64,000 nt of DNA from Candidatus Daviesbacteria bacterium (GTDB lineage: Bacteria > Patescibacteriota > Microgenomatia > Daviesbacterales > UBA10151): the NCBI GenBank assembly GCA_016176415.1, contig JACOXH010000002.1, positions 32,072 to 96,071 of the forward strand. The letters run 5' to 3'. Positions 2,262 through 64,000 of the stretch are shown in pieces. Within the stretch, counting starts at the first letter, position 1; every line of letters starts with the position of its first letter. Under the pieces are notes generated by a model that did no database searches, was not told where the DNA came from, and saw nothing but the letters and a program-made list of their open reading frames with translations. The translations under genes were made by a program, and so were the position numbers.

Positions 2262-2346
2262 TGGCCAGGGAGAGAGTCGAACTCTCATGAGCTGTAAGGC
2301 TCAAAGGTTTTTGAGACCTTCGTGTCTGCCATTCCACCACCTGGCC
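2262..2346 (-). tRNA. tRNA-Leu (anticodon CAA)
   Basis: The manual cloverleaf has acceptor GGCCAGG/CCTGGCC, anticodon stem AAGGT/ACCTT with loop CTCAAAA, a long variable arm, T-arm GAGAG-TTCGACT-CTCTC, and discriminator A. CCA is not encoded. Confidence 0.9.
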
Positions 2347-2399: not shown

Positions 2400-4919
2400 A
2401 TGAGGCTTTGGGCTACACTTACGCGTATGAACAAAAGTGTCAGGCTGCCTGCTCATATCAAACCCGAGCGTTATGAAATAATCCTGCGGCCAAACCTGCA
2501 GGATTTTACTTTCACAGGGGAGGAAACAATCTTTTTTACAACCGATAAATCCATTAAAGAGATTACCCTGCATAGTGTTGATCTGGAAATTGAGTCGATG
2601 GGGGCCAAAATTAAATATGATAAAGCAAGTGAGACAGTAAGTTTAATTTTTCCAAAACCAATTCCAAAAGGCAAAGACAAGATTAAATTAACTTTTAAAG
2701 GAATCTTAAACGATAAAATGAGGGGTTTTTACCGAAGCCAATATACGCACGAAGAGGAAGTGAAGCACCTTGCTACAACCCAGTTTGAATCAACTGATGC
2801 CAGACGGGCTTTTCCCTGTTTTGATGAACCCGCTCAAAAGTCTATCTTTGATGTAACTTTAATGATCCCGTCTCACATGACTGCTATCTCAAATACTGTT
2901 GAATCTGAAGTTTGGGAGCATGAAACAGGAATAAAGGCTGTTAAATTTGAGTCCACTCCCAAAATGTCAGCCTACTTACTGGCTTTTATTGTGGGTGAGT
3001 TTGAGAGTGTGGAAAAGAAAAGCGAAAACGGCATACTGGTTCGCGTTTTTACTACCCCCGGGAAAAAAGAGCAGGGTAGATTTGCTTTGGATGTAGCCTG
3101 CAAATGTTTAGATTTTTATGAAGATTATTTTGGAATTAAATACCCTTTGCCTGTTTTGGATATGATTGCCATTCCTGATTTTGCTGCAGGAGCTATGGAA
3201 AATTGGGGGGCAGTAACTTACAGGGAGTCAAGACTTTTGATCGATGAAAATCTTTCATCTTCTGCCAATAAACAATGGGTAGCGCTCGTAATTGCTCATG
3301 AGTTGGCTCACCAGTGGTTTGGGAATTTAGTCACTATGGAGTGGTGGACTCATCTTTGGCTTAACGAAGGTTTTGCCTCTTTTATCGAATACCTTGCGAT
3401 TGATCACATCTTCCCAAAGTGGGATATTTGGACACAATTTGTAGCCACAGAAATGGGTGATGCATTTGCACTTGATTCTCTGGAAAATACTCATCCTATT
3501 GAGGTGGAAGTGGGTCATCCGGCAGAAATTTCAGAGATTTTTGATAAAGTCAGTTATGCCAAAGGTGCTTCTATTTTAAGAATGCTTATGTCTTATTTGG
3601 GAGATGAAGATTTTAGAAAGGGCCTGAAATTTTATCTTGAAAAATATGCTTATTCAAATGCCAAAACCGAAGATTTGTGGGCATCGCTTGAGGCAGTTTC
3701 AGGTAAACCTGTTGGAAAGATTATGCAAAACTGGACAAGTAAGCCGGGACATCCGGTAGTTAGGGTACAGGGTATAAGCAAGCTTGCCCCGAACGATATC
3801 GGGGTAGGGGATAGGGTAGAGTTAACACAGAGCAGATTTTTTTCAAGCGCAGTTTCCAAAAAGCAGGTAAAAGATACTACTGTTTGGTCAATCCCGTTAA
3901 ATGGCTGTTTAATGGACAAAAATACTATAGGGATTCCTGCAACAGGGGAAAAATTAAACAAAGGCGAAACATCTCTGGTGAGGATTGCTTATCCCAAAGG
4001 TTATCTGAAAGATGAGCTGGGTCCATCTGACAGACTGGGAATAATAAGAGATGCTTTTGATCTGGCTCAGGCAGGGGAAACTGAAACAGCAGATGCTTTA
4101 GAATTGGCTTCAACTTACACGGCGGAAAAAGATTACACTGTCTGGGCTGAAATCACTTCTCAAATCAGTAAAGTTGATTCATTACTTGCTTATGAAGGTT
4201 TTTATTCTGATTTTATGAGTTATGGCCAGAAACTTTATCAGGATATAGCAAAGAGAATGGGATGGGAAAAGAAAGCAGGCGAGAGTCATACAGATTCACT
4301 TCTCAGGGGGATGGTTTTGTATAAATTAGGCAGTTTTGGGGACGGGGAAACTATAAAAAAGGCACAGGAATTGTTTGGAAAAAACATAGACCCTGATTTA
4401 AGGGGGATTGTTTATAATTTGGTTGCAGAAAACGGGGAAGAGAAAGAATATCAGCAGTTGATCCAGATGTACAAAGATGAATCAAATCAGCAGGAAAAAG
4501 ACAGGATCGGCAGAAGTTTGGGGTTATTTAAATCAGAAAAGATTTTGGGCAAAGCTTTGCAGTTTTCAATCTCAAAATTTGTCAGATACCAAAACAGTTT
4601 GCAAATTATTGCCTCTGTCTGGACTAATCCCAGGGGGAGATATTTGGCATGGGAATTTGTGAAAGCAAACTGGCAGATGCTAAAAGAAAGATATGCCGGC
4701 GGGCATTATTTTACTAAAGTGTTTGGTCCTGCGGGGGAGTTTACAAAACTTTCTGATGCCAAAGACATAGAAAAGTTTGTTAAAGCAAATCCTACTCCAG
4801 AGGCTAAAAGAACCATAGCTCAGGCTTTAGAACAGATTTACTCAAATGCTGACTGGTTAAAAAGAGACAGGGAAAATATTAAAAAGTTTTTGGAAAAATC
4901 TGAGCCTGAAGGGTTTTAA
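2400..4919 (+). CDS. pepN: M1-family aminopeptidase N
   Basis: GAMENWG exopeptidase motif and the HELAHQWFGN...WLNEGFA zinc site. An alternative start is ATG 2427 (MNKSVRLP). Confidence 0.9.
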   Translation: MRLWATLTRMNKSVRLPAHIKPERYEIILRPNLQDFTFTGEETIFFTTDKSIKEITLHSVDLEIESMGAKIKYDKASETVSLIFPKPIPKGKDKIKLTFKGILNDKMRGFYRSQYTHEEEVKHLATTQFESTDARRAFPCFDEPAQKSIFDVTLMIPSHMTAISNTVESEVWEHETGIKAVKFESTPKMSAYLLAFIVGEFESVEKKSENGILVRVFTTPGKKEQGRFALDVACKCLDFYEDYFGIKYPLPVLDMIAIPDFAAGAMENWGAVTYRESRLLIDENLSSSANKQWVALVIAHELAHQWFGNLVTMEWWTHLWLNEGFASFIEYLAIDHIFPKWDIWTQFVATEMGDAFALDSLENTHPIEVEVGHPAEISEIFDKVSYAKGASILRMLMSYLGDEDFRKGLKFYLEKYAYSNAKTEDLWASLEAVSGKPVGKIMQNWTSKPGHPVVRVQGISKLAPNDIGVGDRVELTQSRFFSSAVSKKQVKDTTVWSIPLNGCLMDKNTIGIPATGEKLNKGETSLVRIAYPKGYLKDELGPSDRLGIIRDAFDLAQAGETETADALELASTYTAEKDYTVWAEITSQISKVDSLLAYEGFYSDFMSYGQKLYQDIAKRMGWEKKAGESHTDSLLRGMVLYKLGSFGDGETIKKAQELFGKNIDPDLRGIVYNLVAENGEEKEYQQLIQMYKDESNQQEKDRIGRSLGLFKSEKILGKALQFSISKFVRYQNSLQIIASVWTNPRGRYLAWEFVKANWQMLKERYAGGHYFTKVFGPAGEFTKLSDAKDIEKFVKANPTPEAKRTIAQALEQIYSNADWLKRDRENIKKFLEKSEPEGF

Positions 4920-4960
4920 AAATCCTGGGGTGCAGATACACTTTCACCCCTAGGGTGGAA
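4920..4960. repeat. REP-like palindromic unit (CCTGGGGTG-N12-CACCCCTAGGGTG)
   Basis: It lies between the convergent genes pepN and DUF1684. The same unit occurs at 24481, 25222 and 20661. Confidence 0.7.
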
Positions 4961-14741: not shown

Positions 14742-14793
14742 TAGAGTCTAGGAAAATAATCTCTAGACTCTTGACTCTTGACTCTAGTCACTC
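14742..14793. repeat. TAGAGTCTAG/CTAGACTCT inverted repeat followed by TTGACTC tandem units
   Basis: It lies in the intergenic region between the kinase and receiver genes. It belongs to the GAGTCAA/TTGACTC repeat family. Confidence 0.6.
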
Positions 14794-20316: not shown

Positions 20317-21558
20317 ATGAAAAATTTTAGGATTGTTGCAAAAGATGGAAAAGCACGTGTCGGATTACTTACTACTTCTCATGGAGTGATTGAGACTCCG
20401 AATTTTAATCCTGTTGGGACGCAGGCTACAGTGAAGGCGCTTTCCCCAAAAGATCTTAATGAAATCGGCGTGCAGATGGTTTTGGCCAACACTTATCATT
20501 TGATGCTCCGTCCAGGAGCTGATTTAATTGAAAAATTTGGGGGACTGCATAAATTTATGAATTGGGATAAGCCAATTATGACAGATTCAGGAGGATTTCA
20601 GGTTTTTTCTCTGGGTGCGGCTTTAGAACATGGCGGAAGTAAAGTTCTACGAAAAAATACCACCCCTGGGGTGGAATTGAAGCTGCACCCCAGGGGTGTA
20701 AATTCAAAACCAAGATTAAACAAAATTATAGAAGAAGGGGTAACCTTTCAATCTCATATCGACGGTTCAAAGCATATTTTAACTCCTGAAAAATCAATTA
20801 AAATCCAACAGCAATTGGGTGCAGATTTGATTGTGGCTTTTGATGATCACGAGTCTGCAAAGCATAATTATGGTGAGATGCAAAAGTCTTTAGAACTGAC
20901 AGAAAGATGGGGTTTGAGAAGTCTGAAGGAGCACAAAAGAACAGGTGTCAAGCTAATCCACCCTCCAGGTGGGAAGCTGGAGCAGTTGATGTATGGAGTG
21001 GTGCATGGAGGTACGCATAAAGATTTAAGGGTTAGGTCTGCTAAATTTACCGATGAACATTTTGATGCCGTTGCCATAGGTGGAATTTATGGCGATAAAC
21101 AAACGCTTTGCAGTATTGTTGAATGGGTCACAAGTGCAGTTTCAGAGGAAAAACCAAGACATTTGCTGGGTATTGGAGAGGTGGAAGATTTATTTAATGG
21201 AATAGAAAGAGGAGTGGATTTTTTCGACTGTGTAGCGCCCACCAGACGGGCCAGAAACGGCTCTTTATATATTTGCCCTAAAAGTGGTGGTAAAAAATCA
21301 AACAGCTATACTTTAAACATCAGGCAAAGTAAATTTTTTTCAGATAAAAAACCAATTGACCCTCGTTGTAATTGTTATACCTGCACTAATTTTTCCAGAA
21401 GTTATTTGCGTCACTTATATATGGCAGATGAGATTTTGTATCACGAGCTGTCCACTTACCACAATATCTTTTTTATCATTGATTTGGTTAAAAGGATTAG
21501 AGAAACAATTAAGGATGGGGAATTTAAGAAATTTAAAAGAGGGTATATAGACAGGTAA
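20317..21558 (+). CDS. tgt: queuine tRNA-ribosyltransferase (tRNA-guanine transglycosylase)
   Basis: TDSGGFQVFSL, the zinc site CNCYTC...H, and LGIGEVEDL. It carries insertions relative to the canonical layout. Confidence 0.9.
   Translation: MKNFRIVAKDGKARVGLLTTSHGVIETPNFNPVGTQATVKALSPKDLNEIGVQMVLANTYHLMLRPGADLIEKFGGLHKFMNWDKPIMTDSGGFQVFSLGAALEHGGSKVLRKNTTPGVELKLHPRGVNSKPRLNKIIEEGVTFQSHIDGSKHILTPEKSIKIQQQLGADLIVAFDDHESAKHNYGEMQKSLELTERWGLRSLKEHKRTGVKLIHPPGGKLEQLMYGVVHGGTHKDLRVRSAKFTDEHFDAVAIGGIYGDKQTLCSIVEWVTSAVSEEKPRHLLGIGEVEDLFNGIERGVDFFDCVAPTRRARNGSLYICPKSGGKKSNSYTLNIRQSKFFSDKKPIDPRCNCYTCTNFSRSYLRHLYMADEILYHELSTYHNIFFIIDLVKRIRETIKDGEFKKFKRGYIDR
20661..20698. repeat. REP-like pair CACCCCTGGGGTG-N12-CACCCCAGGGGTG inside tgt
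   Basis: Read directly from the sequence. It encodes TTPGVELKLHPRGV within an insert. Confidence 0.7.
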
Positions 21559-24412: not shown

Positions 24413-24480
24413 CTAAATGAAGAAGTATAGAGAGAGTGAGAATTCTTGTCAATGTTTCGTCTTTTGTAAGGATTTCACCC

Positions 24481-25262
24481 TAGGGGTGGCGTTATATTGA
24501 CACCCCAGGTATTTTGGATTACATTAAATATTAATATGCCGCAAAGACCTGTGGTTTTAGCTAATAATGAAATTTATCATGTATTCAACCGTACCATTGG
24601 CGGACAGCAGATTTTTGCCCAGAATCAAAAGTTCAATTTAAGCAAAGCTTTGGAGATAGTAAATTATTATCGTTTTACCCAAAAGATTAGGCTCTCAAGA
24701 TTTAAACAGCTCCCTGCTGAACTGAAAAAACAATATTTGGATGCACTAGCAAGTACTGACCCTCTTGTTGAAATATATGCTTTTGCATTTATGCCAAACC
24801 ATTTTCACTTTTTGCTTAAACAGATAAGGGATAACGGCGTTGCTGCTTTTATTTCAAACTTTCAAAACAGTTTTGCTAAGGTTTTTAATTTAAAGAATAA
24901 TAGGAATGGGGCTTTATTCCAAAATGCTTTTAAAGCAAAAAGGATTGTATCTGATGAACAATTTGTACATATATCCCGTTACATTCATTTAAATCCCGTA
25001 ACAGCTTATATTATTGAGTTTGATAAATTAGCAAATTTTAAATGGACATCTTTTTCAGCTTATGTAACACAGGAACAAATACCACTTATAAACTCAGACT
25101 TTTTAGTACAGATGTTTGGAAGTAAGGAAAAATATGTTAACTTTGTTGCTGATCAGATAGATTACCAAAGGGATTTAGCTCAAATAAAGGATTTATTGAT
25201 TGAGGAATAAATTTTAACTTAAAATCCTGGTGTGTAAATATGATTTCACCCCTAGGGTGCAA
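24481..25262 (+). mobile_element. RAYT-type (IS200-like Y1) transposase gene flanked by inverted REP-like units
   Basis: REP units lie at 24481-24525 (reverse orientation) and 25222-25262 (forward orientation), on either side of the gene. Confidence 0.6.
24536..25210 (+). CDS. REP-associated tyrosine transposase / IS200-like Y1 transposase
   Basis: YHVFNRT, the HUH motif FMPNHFHFLLK, and YIHLNPV. ATG 24536 is preferred because the longer ORF start lies inside the REP unit. Confidence 0.75.
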   Translation: MPQRPVVLANNEIYHVFNRTIGGQQIFAQNQKFNLSKALEIVNYYRFTQKIRLSRFKQLPAELKKQYLDALASTDPLVEIYAFAFMPNHFHFLLKQIRDNGVAAFISNFQNSFAKVFNLKNNRNGALFQNAFKAKRIVSDEQFVHISRYIHLNPVTAYIIEFDKLANFKWTSFSAYVTQEQIPLINSDFLVQMFGSKEKYVNFVADQIDYQRDLAQIKDLLIEE

Positions 25263-26131: not shown

Positions 26132-26887
26132 ATGTCAGGACACAGTAAATGGTCAACTATTAAAAGAGCCAAAGGCGCAGCTGATATCAAACGCGGTTTA
26201 ACTTTTACTAAAGTTGCCAACGCTATTACCATTGCTACCAAAATGGGTGGTTCAGGCGACCCTGATTCTAATCCGCGGCTCCGTATGGCTGTGGATGAAG
26301 CCAGAGGGGTTAATATGCCTAAAGACAATATCCAGAGGGCAATTGACAGAGGTTTGGGGAAATTGCCAGGACAAACTTTAGAGGAAGTTCTCTATGAGGG
26401 TTTTGGTCCTGGTAAGACTGCTTTTTTAGTGGAAGGCGTGACAGATAATAAGATGAGAACTTTACAGGAAGTTAAGAATCTTTTTGACAAAAATGGCGGA
26501 AGCTTGGGAGGACAAGGTAGTGTAGCTTATATGTTTGATCGGGTAGGGGAAATAAGAGTCAAGAGTCAAGAGTCAAGAGTCAAGGAAGATGAGATGTTAG
26601 AACTGATAGACTTGGGAGCGGAAGACGTAGTAGATTATTTAGAAGATAACATGCAAGGGTATTTAGTATATGTGGGAAGCTCAGAAGTAAATACTATGGG
26701 TAATAAAATTACCCGGGCAGGATACAAGGTAGAGTCACAGGAATTAGTCTATAAACCTAATGTTTTAATACAAATAAACGATGCAGAATCAGCTAAAAAA
26801 GTGCTGGATTTTGCAGGGAAGTTAGAAGAGTTGGATGATGTGCAAAAGGTATATGCTAATTTTGATATCAATGAAGGGTTGGTTTAA
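26132..26887 (+). CDS. yebC: YebC/PmpR-family transcriptional regulator
   Basis: MSGHSKWSTIKRAKGAADIKRG N-terminus. Confidence 0.9.
   Translation: MSGHSKWSTIKRAKGAADIKRGLTFTKVANAITIATKMGGSGDPDSNPRLRMAVDEARGVNMPKDNIQRAIDRGLGKLPGQTLEEVLYEGFGPGKTAFLVEGVTDNKMRTLQEVKNLFDKNGGSLGGQGSVAYMFDRVGEIRVKSQESRVKEDEMLELIDLGAEDVVDYLEDNMQGYLVYVGSSEVNTMGNKITRAGYKVESQELVYKPNVLIQINDAESAKKVLDFAGKLEELDDVQKVYANFDINEGLV
26554..26584. repeat. AAGAGTC x4 tandem heptamer inside yebC
   Basis: Read directly from the sequence. It encodes VKSQESRVK. Confidence 0.8.
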
Positions 26888-26888
26888 C

Positions 26889-26974
26889 TGTCATCCTGAG
26901 TGAAACGAAGGATCTTTAGATACCTTGAATACTTGCATTCGCAAGAGATTCTTCGCTAGTCGCTCAGAATGACA
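26889..26974. repeat. MITE-like palindromic element, copy B
   Basis: TGTCATCCTGAGTGAAACGAAGGATC...GATTCTTCGCTAGTCGCTCAGAATGACA. Confidence 0.7.
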
Positions 26975-26984
26975 AAGGTATTTT

Positions 26985-44253: not shown

Positions 44254-45422
44254 TGGTTGATAAAATATGAAATTCGCAATGCATCTTCTTCACTGGTATT
44301 TTTGTGTGTTGGAAGATTTAAAATCTTTTCTGAAATTTCTTCTGCCTTAGGACATTCACCATTATAGTTTGTTTTTGACATATATTTTTTTGGGGATATA
44401 GGAGCATCATACCAAATGTCTGATACAAAAATGCCTTTATTTTTTAAGAATCTGGTAAGACCTAAACGATCATTTATGAATATAGGAAAGCGTAAATTGG
44501 TGGAGTTTGAAATTTCCTGCACCAGATGGGAAGACAAAACTTCTCTACTGATGTTGTCTGCATAAATTTTGGCAATTTTTTTGCGGTGGTTTAAATTTCC
44601 TTCTAAATTATCCAGCTGTTCTTTAGCCAGCTTGCAATACCATGGAGCTATTCCGATAAAACTGGAAGAATCATTCATAGGTTGAGAGAGTAAGTTAAAT
44701 GATTTTAAAATAGTATGAAACATTTTTCCAAAAAAATAAGGATATGTTTTCCTGATAATGAATGTAAAAAGCGGATAGAATCGATCAACTTGTTTAGAGA
44801 AGGGGTGCCAATGTATTCCACCCTCCGGGTGGATCAGCTTGACACCCTTTCTTATTAATGCTCCTCCAGATACAGCATCTATCAGTTTGTCTTGGCTAAA
44901 AGATAAAACAACAAAATCACCCAGACTACCTGCTCTTAAACCGTTCCCATAATGAGCGCCAACGCTATGTGCCAGATCTTCTATTAAAACAATGCCGTTC
45001 TTTTTACAAATTTCTGCAATCTTTTCAACTTTTGCAGAGAAACCCAAAGTATTTTGGATGATTACCACTTTGATGTTAGGATTTTTTGAAATTGCTTTTT
45101 CTAACTCAAGGGGGGAAAAATTTAAATCTCCTTCATCAATATCAAGGTATAGAGGTTTTAATCCTGCATCTGCTATTGCTTTATAAACTGCGAAACATGT
45201 AAAACCATTAATTGCCACCAGTGAGTCTTTTGGCAGATTTAAAATTTTTAAAGCCAACTCAATTGCCTGTCTGCCTTTGTAGGTAAGCATGGTTTGCCCG
45301 TTAAATTTTTCTGATAAATACTTTTCCAGATCTTTTTTGTATCTCTGATTATTGTCTAAAAAAAGAGTTTTTATAACAAAATTTAAATCATAATTGGAAC
45401 CTAAAGAGTTAAAGATGTTCAT
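44238..45422 (-). CDS. DegT/DnrJ/EryC1/StrS-family aminotransferase
   Basis: The SFSQDKLI region (PLP-lysine context) and IEDLAHSVGA. Confidence 0.7.
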   Translation of the reverse strand: MNIFNSLGSNYDLNFVIKTLFLDNNQRYKKDLEKYLSEKFNGQTMLTYKGRQAIELALKILNLPKDSLVAINGFTCFAVYKAIADAGLKPLYLDIDEGDLNFSPLELEKAISKNPNIKVVIIQNTLGFSAKVEKIAEICKKNGIVLIEDLAHSVGAHYGNGLRAGSLGDFVVLSFSQDKLIDAVSGGALIRKGVKLIHPEGGIHWHPFSKQVDRFYPLFTFIIRKTYPYFFGKMFHTILKSFNLLSQPMNDSSSFIGIAPWYCKLAKEQLDNLEGNLNHRKKIAKIYADNISREVLSSHLVQEISNSTNLRFPIFINDRLGLTRFLKNKGIFVSDIWYDAPISPKKYMSKTNYNGECPKAEEISEKILNLPTHKNTSEEDALRISYFINQWLKQ

Positions 45423-49278: not shown

Positions 49279-50085
49279 ATGAAAAACAACCCAATAGGTA
49301 TTTTTGATTCAGGAATAGGCGGACTGACTATTGTAAAAGAGATAATAAAAGCTCTGCCTTTTGAGAGTATTATTTATCTGGGAGATACAGCCAGAGTGCC
49401 TTACGGGCCCAGATCAAAGGAAGTTATTGCCAAATTTGCCAAAGAACTTGCCCAATTCCTGCTGAAGCGTGACGTTAAGTGTTTAGTAGTAGCTTGTAAC
49501 ACCATTTCTGCTACATCTTTGGAAGAGATTGTAAAAATTTCTCCTGTTCCGGTTATAGGGGTAGTTGAACCTACAATTGAGGCAGCAGTCAAAACTATCA
49601 GAGGAAAAAAGATTGGGGTGATTGGTACAGCAGGCACTATAAACAGCGGTGTTTATGAGGATAAAATTGGTAAGTTGAATAAAAGTATTAAAGTGTCAGT
49701 TGGCGCCTGTCCCCTTTTTGTGCCTTTAGCTGAAGAAGGATTAGGCAATCATAAGGCTACAAAAATTATAGCTGAAGGTTATTTAAGAGGATTAAAAAAG
49801 AAAAAAATTGATACGCTTATTTTAGGTTGTACCCACTATCCGGTTTTGGCAGCAACAATACAGCAGATTATGGGTAAACAGGTTAAATTGGTAGATTCTG
49901 CCAAACCAACAGCTCAAAAATTAAAGCAGCTTTTAACAGAAAAAGAATTGGTGACAGAAAACAGAAGTCCTGAATACAGATTTTTTGTCACTGATGCGCC
50001 TGAAAAAGTAATTGAAGTGGCAGGCAGGTTTTTTGGTAAAGGCCTTGACGGAAATCTTGCTAAAATTAACCTACCAACTCTTTAG
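49279..50085 (+). CDS. murI: glutamate racemase
   Basis: IGIFDSGIGGLT, ACNT and GCTHYP motifs. ATG 49279 is preferred over 49237. Confidence 0.9.
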   Translation: MKNNPIGIFDSGIGGLTIVKEIIKALPFESIIYLGDTARVPYGPRSKEVIAKFAKELAQFLLKRDVKCLVVACNTISATSLEEIVKISPVPVIGVVEPTIEAAVKTIRGKKIGVIGTAGTINSGVYEDKIGKLNKSIKVSVGACPLFVPLAEEGLGNHKATKIIAEGYLRGLKKKKIDTLILGCTHYPVLAATIQQIMGKQVKLVDSAKPTAQKLKQLLTEKELVTENRSPEYRFFVTDAPEKVIEVAGRFFGKGLDGNLAKINLPTL

Positions 50086-51475
50086 CTAATTTATCTGTAT
50101 CTCCTGCGCTCATGAAAAAGAGAATATCCCCTTCTTTTATTTCTGGTTTGATTTTTTCCAAGACTTCACTTGCTGATCCTGCGTGAATCACCTCTTCTTT
50201 GTCTATTGCTGATACCAATTCTTTGCTGCTTGTTTGTCCTGTGTCAATTTCCCTTGAAGGGTAAATATCGATGATAAAAGTTTTGTCAGCAGGGATATTT
50301 TTGAAAACTTTGACAAAATCTTCAAATAAAGCTTTGGTTCTGGAAAACATGTGGGGTTGGTAAATTAAAAGCACTCTTTCTTTGGGAAACTTTTCCCTCA
50401 CTGCTTCCATGGTTTTTTCTATTTCTGTAGGGTGATGCCCAAAATCAGAATAAACCTTAGCCTCATTATATTCCCCAATGTATTCAAATCTTCTGCCTGC
50501 TCCGGTAAAAGATTCAAGGCTATCTTTAATAACCTGTGGTTCAATACCTAACATTAGTCCAACTTTAAAAGCTGCTGAAGCATTTAGCTGGTTAAAGTGG
50601 CCGGGGATTTTCAAATTAAATCTTTGCTCATTATTTGAGTAATCAAAACAAGTAATTTTACTTTCTTTCATTACTACTTTGATAATTTCTGCAACTGTAG
50701 TATCTGAAAGATTGGCAAAAATAGTATTTTTAGTTTGCAGCAAAAACTTTTTAAAGCTTGTCTTTACTGCTTCAAAATCCTTAAAGTATTCAGGGTGATC
50801 CATCTCAATATTAGTAACAACAGTGATGTCTGGTTTAAATGAAAGGAAATTGTCGTTAAACTCATCTGCCTCGATGACAATAAACCCACGGTCGTGAGGT
50901 TTTTGTATAGGGATCCGGTAGTTTGTGCCCCATTTTGGAATGATGGCTCCCAGCTCTACTGTTGGATCTAAGTTTGCATCCTCCAGTATTTTGGCAATCA
51001 TGGCAGTGGTTGTAGTTTTGCCGTGAGTTCCGGCAACAGCAATCACAAATTGATTTTTAGTAAGATGTTGTCCTAAGAATTGCTGCCAGGTCATAATCCC
51101 GATTTCTCGTTTTCTCGCTTCTCGTAACTCGTCGTTATCAGGATCTAAGGAATAAATAGCAGGAGTAACAGCAAGAATGTCAATTAAATTGTCATTCTGA
51201 GGAGTCATCGACGAAGAATCTCTCCTCTGCAAAGCAGTTGTTTCACAACACTTGTTTGAGACCCACATTCGTGGGAGATCCTTCGCTAATCGCTCAGGAT
51301 GACAATAAAGATGTTGTGGTGAATGGCCTTTTAAAAGCTGATGAGGTTTAAAGACAGAGGTAAATTCGTTATCTGGTTCCAAATCACATCCAGTTACTTC
51401 AAAACCCTGGGCCTCTGCAATCTTTGCCGCCGCCGACGCCCCGCTTCCCCCTATTCCTAAAAAATGTACTCTCAT
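50066..51475 (-). CDS. murC: UDP-N-acetylmuramate--L-alanine ligase, with an in-frame repeat insertion
   Basis: HFLGIGGSGASAAA and VAGTHGKTTTTAM. An approximately 39 aa insert is encoded by MITE-like copy C. Confidence 0.9.
   Translation of the reverse strand: MRVHFLGIGGSGASAAAKIAEAQGFEVTGCDLEPDNEFTSVFKPHQLLKGHSPQHLYCHPERLAKDLPRMWVSNKCCETTALQRRDSSSMTPQNDNLIDILAVTPAIYSLDPDNDELREARKREIGIMTWQQFLGQHLTKNQFVIAVAGTHGKTTTTAMIAKILEDANLDPTVELGAIIPKWGTNYRIPIQKPHDRGFIVIEADEFNDNFLSFKPDITVVTNIEMDHPEYFKDFEAVKTSFKKFLLQTKNTIFANLSDTTVAEIIKVVMKESKITCFDYSNNEQRFNLKIPGHFNQLNASAAFKVGLMLGIEPQVIKDSLESFTGAGRRFEYIGEYNEAKVYSDFGHHPTEIEKTMEAVREKFPKERVLLIYQPHMFSRTKALFEDFVKVFKNIPADKTFIIDIYPSREIDTGQTSSKELVSAIDKEEVIHAGSASEVLEKIKPEIKEGDILFFMSAGDTDKLAKELVG
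51190..51304. repeat. MITE-like palindromic element, copy C, inside murC
   Basis: TGTCATTCTGAGG...CGCTCAGGATGACA. It translates in the murC frame as CHPERLAKDL...MTPQNDN. Confidence 0.75.
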
Positions 51476-51482
51476 ATGGAGA

Positions 51483-53494
<2,012 letters not shown>

Positions 53495-53508: not shown

Positions 53509-54114
53509 TCATTTTAAAGTGGGCATTTCCAGCATCAGATATTCTAAAATAGCCCTGATATTTACATTTTGTTTAACCCATTTTTCTGCCTCCAAAAGCT
53601 TGTTTGCAAAGTCCGGATAATCTGTAATGTGGTTACGAAAATAAGCAATTAAATTTTGTAAAAGTTCTTCCCTGTTTTTGGTTTTCTCCACCACTTCAAA
53701 CCTTTGTTCGGGCGTTGCCTTAAGTAGTTTTTCTATGTCTTTTGAATTATTCATGACTCTTGACTCTAGACCCTTGACTCTAACTATCTCGCACCTTGAA
53801 AGTATAGTTGGTAATATTGTTGTATCTGAATTGGCTCTCATCAAAAATTGGCCATTAGCAGGCAGCTCTTCTATGGTTTTTAACAGCGCATTTTGGGCTT
53901 CTAAAGTCATGACTGAAATATCCTCAATAATCACACTCCTTCCTTTAGCAGAGTATGGTTTTAGGGAAAAATGCTCTTTTATTTTTCTGGCCTCTGCTAT
54001 TCCCAGTTTTTCCCCCGCTTTAAAATACAGAGTATCCGGGTGATTCACGTTCCCACTTTCCATGTGGGAAGCCAGGGTTTGAGGACTGGGAGAAATCAGA
54101 AGCCTTGCAATCAT
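53509..54114 (-). CDS. holB: DNA polymerase III delta-prime-like protein (short)
   Basis: NALLKTIEELP and the SRC motif (TILSRCEIV). It lacks an obvious Walker A. Confidence 0.55.
   Translation of the reverse strand: MIARLLISPSPQTLASHMESGNVNHPDTLYFKAGEKLGIAEARKIKEHFSLKPYSAKGRSVIIEDISVMTLEAQNALLKTIEELPANGQFLMRANSDTTILPTILSRCEIVRVKGLESRVMNNSKDIEKLLKATPEQRFEVVEKTKNREELLQNLIAYFRNHITDYPDFANKLLEAEKWVKQNVNIRAILEYLMLEMPTLK
53754..53781. repeat. TGACTCT-type repeats inside the holB-like gene
   Basis: TGACTCT TGACTCT AGACCC TTGACTCT, encoding VKGLESRVM. Confidence 0.65.
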
Positions 54115-58883: not shown

Positions 58884-59792
58884 ATGTGGGAGTCAGCAGG
58901 CTTTATAACCGGTATTATTTTAGGTAGTTTTGCTAAGGCGCTGGCTGACAGGAGTTTAGGCAAAAACTCATTTTGGGGAAGGTCGTACTGTCCATCCTGC
59001 AAAGCAGGATTAAGGTGGTACGACCTCTTTCCCGTTTTCTCATATCTGCTTCTTAAAGGCCGGTGCAGATACTGTCATAGGAAGATTGGTATTGAATATT
59101 TAGTGGTTGAGGTAGTGATGGGAGTATTAATAGCGTTTCTTTTTACCCAGACATTTGTTAATTTTAAATTTGAAATTTTTAATTTTTATTCAATTTTAAA
59201 TTTTAAATTTTTAATTTTTATTTTCGAACTGATACTTAAAATTTTCTTTATTACTGTTTTGACAGCTTTATTCATAACTGATATTAAAAAAATGCTGATT
59301 CCTGACAGAATTGTTATACCTGCTATTTGGATCGGACTCACTTCCCTCTTTGCGTTGACTGCTTATAAAATCGGGTATCTTTACTATTATCTTTCAAGTA
59401 ATCTGTTGGGAAGGTACCTTCTGCCTCCCAATGAATATTTCGGGAGACATGCTTTAATAATCTCTCAACCTCTTTTGTACGGGATTGGGACAGGTTTTGG
59501 TATAGCTGCTTTTTTCTACATTATTATATTGCTAACCCGGGGTAAAGGCATGGGCGGAGGTGACGTAAAATTGGGCGCATTTATGGGGTTGATGTTGGGA
59601 TTTCCCAATGGTATTTTGGCTTTAATTTTGTCATTCTTAACAGGCGCTGTTTTTTCCGTTATGCTGATTATTGCCGGTAAAAAACATTTCGGACAGGTTA
59701 TTCCGTTTGGACCCTTTCTTGTGGCCGGCAGTTTAATTGCTCTTTTTTGGGGAAACAGAATTATTGATTGGTATTTACAGATTGGTCGGTAA
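58884..59792 (+). CDS. pilD: prepilin peptidase (A24 family)
   Basis: N-terminal CPSC...CRYC, the catalytic-Asp context GGGDVKL, and multiple TM segments. It contains an A/T-only repeat insert. Confidence 0.85.
   Translation: MWESAGFITGIILGSFAKALADRSLGKNSFWGRSYCPSCKAGLRWYDLFPVFSYLLLKGRCRYCHRKIGIEYLVVEVVMGVLIAFLFTQTFVNFKFEIFNFYSILNFKFLIFIFELILKIFFITVLTALFITDIKKMLIPDRIVIPAIWIGLTSLFALTAYKIGYLYYYLSSNLLGRYLLPPNEYFGRHALIISQPLLYGIGTGFGIAAFFYIIILLTRGKGMGGGDVKLGAFMGLMLGFPNGILALILSFLTGAVFSVMLIIAGKKHFGQVIPFGPFLVAGSLIALFWGNRIIDWYLQIGR
59158..59224. repeat. A/T-only tract with two tandem units of about 31 nt, inside pilD
   Basis: ATTTTAAATTTGAAATTTTTAATTTTTATT / AATTTTAAATTTTAAATTTTTAATTTTTATTTT. It encodes NFKFEIFNFYSILNFKFLIFIF. 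Confidence 0.8.
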
Positions 59793-63317: not shown

Positions 63318-63359
63318 ATGGACAATGGACAAATAAATCTCAAATGTCAAATGTCAAAT
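63318..63359. repeat. heptamer tracts (ACAATGG x2, AAATGTC x2.5) at the start of a minor pilin gene
   Basis: Read directly from the sequence. The start codon of the 63351 gene lies inside the repeat. Confidence 0.8.
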
Positions 63360-63752
63360 GAAAGAGGGTTTTCCCTTGTAGAGTCCATGATTGTTATAGC
63401 GATAATAGGTTCGATAGTCTTTTTGATTGCCAGTATTCCCAACTCTTTAATGCTTATTACCAAAAGCAGAAATATAAGTTTAGCCAGAGAAATAGCTGTT
63501 AAACAAATTGAAGATAAAAGACAAATAAGTTATGAAAATTTAGTAAATGACAACTCCCCTATTACTGATACACGATTGAGCTTGTTGCCTCAGGGAAGCG
63601 GAAATTTGATTATTGAAGATTGTGATAGTGCAGTCTGCACAAACGGAGAGCCTGTAAAACGGGTTAAAACAACAGTCAGCTGGGTTGTTGAAGGAAAGAC
63701 GCAAAAAGTTACTTTGGAAACAATGATTGGAGAAGGAGGGATTAACCAGTGA
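63351..63752 (+). CDS. minor pilin / pseudopilin
   Basis: MSNERGFSLVESMIVIAIIG prepilin N-terminus. ATG 63351 is preferred over TTG 63312. Confidence 0.7.
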   Translation: MSNERGFSLVESMIVIAIIGSIVFLIASIPNSLMLITKSRNISLAREIAVKQIEDKRQISYENLVNDNSPITDTRLSLLPQGSGNLIIEDCDSAVCTNGEPVKRVKTTVSWVVEGKTQKVTLETMIGEGGINQ

Positions 63753-63783
63753 AATGTCAAATGTCAAATGTCAAATGTCAAAT
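63752..63783. repeat. AAATGTC x4 tandem heptamer at the start of the next pilin-like gene
   Basis: Read directly from the sequence. It places ATGs at 63754, 63761, 63768 and 63775. Confidence 0.85.
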
Positions 63784-64000
63784 CTGCAATAAAGGCTTGA
63801 CTTTGGTGGAGGTGTTGGTGGCCATGGGAATTGTTACTGTAACAGGAGTGCTGTTAGTTGCTGTTATAGTTAACAGTACCGGAGTTTTTTCTAAGCAGTC
63901 TTCAAAAATACAAACAGGTGTAAGTATTAACGATTCTTTGATGCAGATAAGGGGCGCCATTAAACAGGCAAGTGGTATAGCTGAAACTTTAACACAGGGT
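63761..64000 (+). CDS. minor pilin / pseudopilin (3' end truncated by the window edge)
   Basis: The frame is open from GTG 63749 / ATG 63761 to the window end. N-terminus MSNVKCQICNKGLTLVEVLVAMGIV. This ORF is not in the supplied track because it has no stop codon. Confidence 0.65.
   Translation, partial: MSNVKCQICNKGLTLVEVLVAMGIVTVTGVLLVAVIVNSTGVFSKQSSKIQTGVSINDSLMQIRGAIKQASGIAETLTQG

Follow-up and report, generated by a model that had tools for sequence, protein, structure and literature searches.

The DNA analysed here (hereafter the window) is a 64,000-nt stretch of contig JACOXH010000002.1 of a Candidatus Daviesbacteria bacterium. It carries a murC gene that holds within its reading frame a short palindromic element, referred to as copy C, since four further copies of the repeat (A, B, D and E) are found in the window. 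The gene belongs to a holB-gyrB-murC-murI-murD neighbourhood, which is conserved in relatives. The features of the gene and of the element are as follows (aa, amino acids; nt, nucleotides; ORF, open reading frame).

50066-51475, minus strand: murC, 469 aa, open from ATG to stop (ORF list)
51189-51305: element copy C, 117 nt, two hairpin arms joined head to head as a dimer, plus a structured spacer (inverted ends, alignment with copies A, B, D and E)
51188-51304, minus strand: 39 extra codons, residues C58-N96, CHPERLAKDLPRMWVSNKCCETTALQRRDSSSMTPQNDN (translation, alignment to insert-free relatives)
51190-51219, plus strand: arm 1, TGTCATTCTGAGGAGTCATCGACGAAGAAT, outer stem ATTCT/AGAAT (structural arm scan, frame table)
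51278-51304, minus strand: arm 2, TGTCATCCTGAGCGATTAGCGAAGGAT, outer stem ATCCT/AGGAT (structural arm scan, frame table)
51262-51275, minus strand: spacer hairpin CCCAC-GAAT-GTGGG, adjoining arm 2

The product of the ORF is MurC. It scores 351.9 bits against TIGR01082 (cutoff 335.1), the match falling into two stretches with the insert between them, and it has the three-domain architecture of the Mur ligases (Pfam Mur_ligase PF01225, Mur_ligase_M PF08245 and Mur_ligase_C PF02875). Its best sequence matches in the PDB are solved MurC chains. The P-loop GTHGKTT (G149-T157) is among the columns that are invariant in 119 aligned homologues, the query being counted among the 119, and the query departs from none of these columns. 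In the ORF list with translations, the frame runs uninterrupted across copy C. A preliminary description of this DNA had claimed that murC stays open across the element and thereby gains about 39 residues; this is indeed the case, the extra residues being exactly C58-N96. The NCBI entry with the identical protein is HYS95_00500 (Candidatus Daviesbacteria bacterium).

Copy C ends in inverted repeats of 13 nt (TTGTCATYCTGAG / CTCAGRATGACAA), and its 117-nt bounds sit one base off the codon boundaries of the 39-residue insert. According to the frame table, arm 2 reads CHPERLAKD, and arm 1, read on the sense strand, gives ...RDSSSMTPQND. The spacer hairpin has an equivalent in copy B and in the murC insert of a relative (L001, see below), where it is CTTGC-GAAT-GCAAG, a compensatory difference from copy C. 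The element is predicted to fold strongly, both as RNA (-45.7 kcal/mol, z -3.3) and as single-stranded DNA (-22 kcal/mol, z -3.7). Its GC content is 46%, versus 38% for the remainder of murC. Tryptic peptides to be expected from the insert include MWVSNK, CCETTALQR and DSSSMTPQNDNLIDILAVTPAIYSLDPDNDELR.

The inserted segment and its site in MurC

Two sets of MurC proteins were used for comparison: the 120 closest homologues, all Daviesbacteria-like and 58-81% identical to the query, and a wider set of 125 full-length representatives of clusters made at 50% identity. Alignment of the solved MurC structures covers query residues 2-55 and resumes at about residue 98-108, so that some 40 query residues are left unmatched. 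The segment from H51 to P105, 55 aa long in the query, measures 15-17 aa in 121 of the 125 representatives and never more than 26. The statement of the preliminary description that canonical MurC proteins are contiguous at this point is thus correct, with the nuance that the loop is hypervariable within Daviesbacteria and not uniformly contiguous there. The two nearest homologues (P0002 and P0007) lack the insert and read HLK-NT-DILAVTPAI; a minimal, insert-free form is found in about 38 of the 120 homologues. At the DNA level, alignment with the P0002 gene leaves a clean gap at the insert site. Indeed, if exactly 117 nt are taken out of the window gene, the sequence becomes CAT CTT TAT TTA ATT GAC ATT (HLYLIDI), which has the minimal HL-xxx-DI length. 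A comparison with orthologues had been proposed as a check, a conserved, lineage-specific MurC loop being the outcome that would have spoken against an origin from the repeat. The comparison argues for such an origin, since close relatives lack the segment and since copy C shares 84-87% identity, in the columns that align, with copy B, its closest intergenic relative, with which it also has the spacer hairpin in common, with compensatory changes. These alignments support the view that the 117-nt segment is an insertion and not a conserved MurC loop, and likewise that it derives from the repeat family.

The same junction is occupied in several relatives, for which DNA was recovered in most cases (P0008 is L001, P0081 is L125, P0090 is L126, P0009 is L003 and P0011 is L004). 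At the insert site, P0008, P0081, P0090 and P0092 read HLY-CHPE...QND(K)-x-I/V-DI. In the DNA of L001, L125 and L126 the left junction is identical (CTN TAT|TGT CAT CCT) and the arms come in the same order as in the window murC, ATCCT lying 5' and ATTCT 3'; the spacers differ in length, giving totals of 126, 72 and 93 nt. In the murC of L003, that very nucleotide position is taken by a dimer from another arm family (ATTGC), CGTCATTGCGA...GAAGCAATC / GATTGCTTCG...CTCGCAATGAC. In L004 the site holds a nested stack made of decayed arm starts, a short dimer of the D/E type, an extra right end and a small palindrome. The latter encodes ASHIGSGNV, a remnant common to several other homologues. Altogether, inserts at this codon position are found in P0001, P0008, P0081, P0090, P0092, P0009 and P0011, while many other homologues keep remnants of 4-12 residues.

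Because different arm families and a nested stack share one junction, this loop has been hit or re-hit at least three times. By this comparison of sequences, the MurC loop at codons 57/58 is a recurrent insertion site. Only the ATTGC-family insert of L003 and the nested insert of L004 clearly look like separate events. The five carriers of the LYCHPE...QND type are scattered by a neighbour-joining MurC tree but nevertheless share junction, orientation and arm types; they may go back to one old insertion followed by losses or to repeated gains.

Similar inserts are seen in other genes of these relatives. The gyrB genes of L001 (1117-3159), L003 (7330-9384) and L004 (7376-9445) have an in-frame insert of 35-45 residues between ...ILK and KT (for example VILGSEATPESDGEDS... 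and VIPTPSEASGQAP...SASPQDDS), with arm-like DNA at 9073-9103 in L003 and 9186-9211 in L004; the window gyrB (51483-53423) is without it. A single in-frame arm of the ATTGC family, read VIARSEATWQS, lies at an orthologous position in pilD of L003 (1647-1677), L004 (1600-1630) and L127 (2032-2062), where the window pilD has an AT-rich tandem repeat (59160-59222) encoding FKFEIFNFYSILNFKF. The murL of relatives contains an in-frame arm as well. Further short, repeat-like inserts in frame are found in the Daviesbacteria MurC homologues P0099, P0086, P0009, P0035, P0046, P0074, P0081 and P0087, in several other loops at query positions 142, 184, 189, 272, 396-398 and 427; they include PSRHPERSE, KQSLKFSQ (present in two separate places), EQSSRASRT, ARPAKSASGGRSG and EVEPKLRNGEKMV.

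The repeat family in the window and beyond

The window holds nine occurrences of the 13-mer end motif, where chance alone would give 0.16. A structural scan for arms (GTCAT, three bases, a loop of 7-27 nt and the complementary five bases) recovers exactly ten arms, that is five dimers, plus four chance matches (mean of 4.2 in shuffled sequence). The four copies other than copy C are intergenic.

710-801: copy A, 92 nt, 7 nt past the stop of a gene for a metallo-beta-lactamase (MBL)-fold protein, upstream of dnaB
26888-26975: copy B, 88 nt, abutting the yebC stop (0 nt) and ending 9 nt before the ruvC start
53431-53494: copy D, 64 nt, between the holB stop and the gyrB start, ending 7 nt from the gyrB start codon
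59836-59905: copy E, 70 nt, 43 nt past the pilD stop, upstream of a pilin gene

All four lie between co-directional genes, at a distance of 0-43 nt from the preceding stop codon. Each of the five dimers has its tags pointing outward, and each is a heterodimer of one ATTCT arm and one ATCCT arm, so that covariation is within arms and not between them. An interpretation of a 5-nt indel in one arm as an adaptation that avoids a TGA frame was rejected as over-interpretation, because the length of the arm loop varies generally in the family.

Copies B and D make up nearly the whole of the yebC-ruvC and holB-gyrB intergenic regions, and may therefore supply or displace signals for the initiation or termination of translation.

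The arm has a consensus of about 25 nt, 5'-TGTC-ATYCT-GA-GC-GNA-GC-GA-AGRAT-C. A scan of one genome per GTDB species with the motif TGTCATYCTGAGNNNARCGAAGRAT (596 Gb, in which about 0.5 chance matches are expected) found it in at least 120 species-genome loci (L005-L124), and a scan of IMG/VR in at least 120 viral contigs (loci from L128 onward). These and the following counts are among the matches listed. The phyla represented include Nitrospirota, Acidobacteriota, Chloroflexota, Bacteroidota, Saccharibacteria, Gracilibacteria, Planctomycetota, Gemmatimonadota and Proteobacteria, among others; Lachnospiraceae are also present. Of the 157 arms that the genome scan yielded, 151 have a Watson-Crick pair at the free Y/R positions (79 C-G and 72 T-A). 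The inner pair is 143 times C-G and 9 times T-A, and 143 arms have the triloop G-N-A, with N free. Arm positions 6-7 are a tandem G.A/A.G and not Watson-Crick. The tails are CTC in 67 arms, followed by CTG (25), CTT (15), CTA (14), CCC (12) and CCA (7). In other phyla, a partner is present at a distance of 60-150 nt for about half of the arms. The core GCGNAGC is a known 'mini-hairpin' DNA motif (PMC13037366). Nearest-neighbour DNA folding of single arms gives weak energies (-2.7 kcal/mol, z -0.6), and one arm of copy C does not fold in this model; the case for the arm as a hairpin therefore rests on covariation rather than on energy.

Conservation of this kind across phyla is unusual for a repetitive extragenic palindromic (REP) sequence or for a transposable element of the miniature inverted-repeat type (MITE). 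One of the matches (L006, 2207-2231) is a single TGTC arm in frame in the HisA gene of a cultured flavobacterium (Bacteroidota), Lacinutrix jangbogonensis PAMC 27137, where it is read ECHSEQSEES; this HisA scores 249.6 bits with TIGR00007 (cutoff 228.95). It follows that in-frame copies are not peculiar to metagenome assemblies.

A partner for mobility was sought in the same material. Neither the window nor the roughly 240 arm loci listed yielded a parent insertion sequence (IS) or a transposase that shares the ends, and no consistent direct repeat that would represent a target-site duplication flanks the five window copies. TTTA is present on both sides of the murC element; a 4-nt duplication would break the frame, and the boundaries are ambiguous by about 2 nt in either direction. 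No Y1 transposase adjoins the TGTC arms in the roughly 240 genome and viral loci listed. A Y1 transposase of the REP-associated tyrosine transposase (RAYT) type was rejected as partner, a phmmer search with the Daviesbacteria Y1 protein giving no match among 3515 neighbouring ORFs. A gene for a GIY-YIG protein was dropped as well: just 5 of the 120 genome loci listed have one within 1 kb of an arm, with inconsistent geometry, and small GIY-YIG ORFs near arms were found neither in the viral loci listed nor in the window.

The window does contain a Y1_Tnp gene of its own (24497-25210, plus strand; IS200-like/RAYT-like, Pfam 28.3 bits) within a REPtron-like unit (24473-25262). The 53-nt inverted repeats on either side of it contain a palindrome of a second family, CACCCYWRGGGTG, which has no relation to the TGTC arms; other members of this family lie at 4918-4960, 20660-20701, 20937-20972 and 44818-44853. 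In the relative L127 a homologous Y1 gene (734-1384) has GATTACACCCCAAGGGTGTAATCGGAGGTT on both sides. The GIY-YIG (UPF0213-like) ORFs are at L007 7086-7376, L024 6260-6598, L072 4131-4433, L093 2282-2587 and L117 3377-3700, and a mild enrichment is possible.

Tandem repeats of another kind are present too. The heptamer GAGTCAA/TTGACTC, in 3-4 repeats, occurs at 26554-26584 (plus strand) and, as the complement, at 14761-14792 and 53748-53788. It is in frame within yebC (IRVKSQESRVKE) and holB (RVKGLESRVMN), the third array being intergenic, upstream of ORF 14806. Similar arrays of AAATGTC are found at 63335-63360 and 63752-63791. The sole Rfam match of the window at the gathering threshold is an 85-nt tRNA gene (2262-2346, minus strand, 55.5 bits).

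It is tempting, though we regard the idea as rather doubtful, to view the arm as a single mobile structural module that is spread across most phyla and phages, has no dedicated transposase and integrates in a site- or structure-directed manner. Such a module would explain why at least three arm families (ATYCT with long spacer, ATTGC and the short D/E type) are found at the same murC nucleotide, as well as the in-frame copies in gyrB, pilD and murL of relatives. If it exists, it would amount to an undescribed, RPE-like remodelling of protein loops in essential genes of the Candidate Phyla Radiation (CPR; for RPE, Rickettsia palindromic element, see below), and the junction at codons 57/58 would serve as a natural targeting assay.

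Fate of the insert in mature MurC

The preliminary description left two possibilities: either the enzyme tolerates a surface loop born from a mobile repeat, or the segment is removed or bypassed at the RNA level. The first is favoured here. The murC-borne elements of four independent assemblies measure 117, 126, 72 and 93 nt; all four lengths are divisible by three and all four elements are free of stops, whereas none of the intergenic copies (92, 88, 64 and 70 nt) has a length divisible by three. Only 8 of the 30 combinations of frame and orientation among the five window copies are open. The pattern bears the mark of selection on a frame that is translated; neither openness nor divisibility by three would be required of a segment that is excised.

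A structural model points in the same direction. AlphaFold2, run on the alignment of 119 sequences, gives a MurC model with a mean predicted local distance difference test (pLDDT) score of 87.2 and a predicted template modelling (pTM) score of 0.80, which Foldseek matches to the solved MurC structures 4hv4 and 1p3d with E of about 1e-35. The only segment with pLDDT below 50 comprises residues 66-93, between the helices H53-56/H62-65 and the strand E100-103. The mapping onto an AlphaFold model that had been suggested as a check thus places the insert in a low-confidence loop within a confident MurC fold, and an enzyme carrying it would be expected to be functional. In Rossmann-like folds, ligands bind as a general rule at the C-terminal ends of the strands. 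Because the insert loop precedes beta-4, its edge of the domain would face away from the uridine diphosphate (UDP) site.

We therefore consider it likely that the insert is a tolerated, disordered surface loop, and we infer from the constraint on frame and length that it is translated. According to this proposal, a non-autonomous palindromic repeat, in the style of REP dimers or REPINs, would have inserted between codon 57 and the codons for DILAVTPAI, in the loop leading into beta-4 of the Rossmann-like N-terminal domain that binds UDP, and would have been carried on as coding sequence. The stop-free copy of 117 nt would be transcribed and translated with the gene, yielding a MurC with a disordered surface loop of 39 residues. 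It would represent selfish or neutral DNA that survived by landing in frame in a permissive loop, as in Rickettsia genes; the element probably moves by way of single-stranded DNA hairpins. Three points weigh against this proposal. The strong hairpin of the mRNA (-45.7 kcal/mol) could impede ribosomes; the disorder in the AlphaFold2 model may just reflect that the alignment lacks homologous sequences for the insert; and the NCBI pipeline has named this MurC a 'hypothetical protein'.

Could the loop have been exapted as a functional extension of Daviesbacteria MurC, involved in protein interaction or regulation and kept by selection? Inserts at the same codon position in several lineages, and the remnants of 4-12 residues retained by many other homologues, would fit this idea. 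However, the inserts differ in length (24-42 codons), in spacer and even in arm family (ATYCT versus ATTGC), and what is conserved is the nucleotide palindrome and not a peptide motif. About a third of the homologues are free of an insert, and the loop is predicted to be disordered. Exaptation thus appears improbable.

We give still less credence to a reading of this murC copy as a pseudogene in decay, or as an assembly chimera that arose from the collapse of repeats, although repeats are classic sites of misassembly and the 'hypothetical protein' product name could be read in this way. All 469 codons are intact, the product scores above the TIGR01082 cutoff and no invariant column is lost. 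Both flanks are colinear murC in the same frame, and the gene neighbourhood is conserved. Moreover, homologous inserts at the identical junction are found in assemblies from NCBI, Logan and JGI (L001, L125 and L126), which argues that the insert is not an assembly artefact.

Removal or bypass of the 117 nt after transcription, by intron-like excision, by RNase cleavage and religation or by ribosomal hopping, to give a mature MurC without the loop, has the slightest of chances: the element is a strong RNA hairpin and its exact excision would restore the canonical loop length, but the open frames and lengths divisible by three of the murC-borne copies would be needless, and a search of Rfam over 50900-51600 found no group I or II intron, ribozyme or other family at the gathering threshold or at E<=10. 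The bypass in phage T4 gene 60 involves an in-frame stop and a take-off/landing arrangement; neither is present here. We know of no bacterial splicing of such palindromes. An intein was rejected as well: inteins have about 130 aa or more and end in HN followed by C, S or T, whereas this insert has 39 aa and ends ...QNDN before a Leu, without intein ends.

If the insert is indeed a translated, tolerated surface loop, 'selfish DNA inside protein-coding genes', the classic Rickettsia result, would also operate in the CPR, a group with ultra-small genomes in which strong streamlining is presumed to act on every gene. In MurC domain 1, the loop that precedes beta-4 would be marked as tolerant of insertions, which is useful for the engineering of MurC and for its interpretation as a drug target. 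There is a lesson for annotation too, in that the insert pushed a clearly identifiable essential enzyme to 'hypothetical protein' in the public record, and in metagenomes the translated arms (CHPERSEG, VILSEAKD, AQND, SLRMT) will probably give rise to many protein predictions that are spurious or distorted.

Relation to known palindromic repeats

The points of interest of the present element are its CPR host, the fact that different arm families recur at one codon junction, and the arm's covariation and very wide distribution. In the collection of papers searched, queries linking CPR or Patescibacteria to REP, REPIN or RPE returned nothing relevant, and neither did searches for the DNA words of the arm and the peptides it encodes.

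The preliminary description called the element 'MITE-like'. Like the MITEs Correia, ERIC, QMITE and Nezha (PMC10969869, PMC3184786), it is small, multicopy and bounded by terminal inverted repeats, with occasional in-frame fusions: its inverted ends are 13 nt long, its copies measure 64-117 nt (below about 300 bp) and there are five of them in 64 kb. This part of the label holds. On the other hand, no target-site duplication was identified at the window copies and no parent IS sharing the ends, nor any cognate transposase, was found in the window or the arm loci listed; moreover, what is conserved is a hairpin arm that covaries internally and not a transposase-binding terminal inverted repeat. 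Together with the REP-dimer architecture, this makes 'MITE-like' a loose label, and judged by its sequence the element is not a classical MITE.

REPINs (Bertels & Rainey 2011, PMC3116915; Nunvar et al.) resemble it in form: they too consist of two inverted REP units, form a long hairpin as replicative unit and reach tens of copies per genome. However, they have a GTAG tag and flank a cognate RAYT gene, whereas the tag is TGTC here and the Y1 gene of the window goes with a different palindrome. Strictly speaking, the window element is thus no REPIN.

What characterises the Rickettsia RPEs (Ogata et al.; review PMC10969869) is the presence of palindromic repeats in frame within housekeeping genes. 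The likeness is considerable: short palindromic repeats are found both between genes and in frame in conserved housekeeping genes of a small, reduced genome, and the extra translated peptide segments are thought to sit on protein surfaces. The hosts differ, being Alphaproteobacteria in one case and Patescibacteria/CPR in the other. The sequences differ too. RPE-1, of about 150 bp, has a conserved peptide, whereas the window element has a variable spacer. RPE-6/CGTC-1, with its ATTCCCGC stem, encodes VIPAKAGI / SFPRKRES / DSRFRGND, unlike the window arm ATYCT-GA-GC-GNA-GC-GA-AGRAT, which encodes CHPERSEG / VILSEAKD / AQND. By sequence, then, the element belongs to none of RPE-1 to RPE-10, its peptides being distinct from those of RPE-4 and RPE-6 (VIPWLDHGI, VIPAKAGI, DSRFRGND).

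A close parallel is the CGTC-tagged REP superfamily of Di Nocera, De Gregorio & Rocco (2013, BMC Genomics 14:522; PMC3733652). As described there, the unit has a CGTC tag, often TGTC (or CCTC), a stem of 8-9 bp starting A-T, T-A, a loop of 4-5 nt and a CCA tail. The repeats are mostly head-to-head dimers with spacers of 20-100 bp, some of which have stem-loops of their own, and heterodimers are common. They lie mainly just 3' of co-directional or convergent genes, some being intragenic and in frame, and no dedicated transposase is known for them. RPE-4, RPE-6 and Neisseria dRS3 are members. Intragenic cases include R. conorii murB, which carries an in-frame dimer of this superfamily (PMC3733652, supplementary file 3), PBP1C, dnaE and uvrABC. 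Five phyla are reported to harbour such repeats, and CPR is not among them.

The present element departs from this description in several respects. The CCA tail is seen in only 7 of the 157 arms listed, CTC being the commonest. The stem contains the tandem G.A/A.G pair and the GC-GNA-GC mini-hairpin, and the arm motif was found in many more phyla, as well as in viral contigs. Its sequence also differs from CGTC-1, -3 and -4, the comparison being with the peptides listed for these families. On the other hand, the tag is TGTC in all ten window arms and CGTC in the arms of L003 and L004; the stem is AT-Y-C-T / A-G-R-AT, and the GNA loop becomes CGNAG if the stem is counted as 8 bp. Head-to-head heterodimers and a location 3' of co-directional genes are likewise shared. 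In tag, stem, loop, dimer and location, though not in the CCA tail, the architecture read from the sequence matches that of the CGTC/TGTC-tagged REP superfamily. The covariation of the arm and its conservation across phyla also provide a handle on how this family, which has no known transposase, is mobilised.

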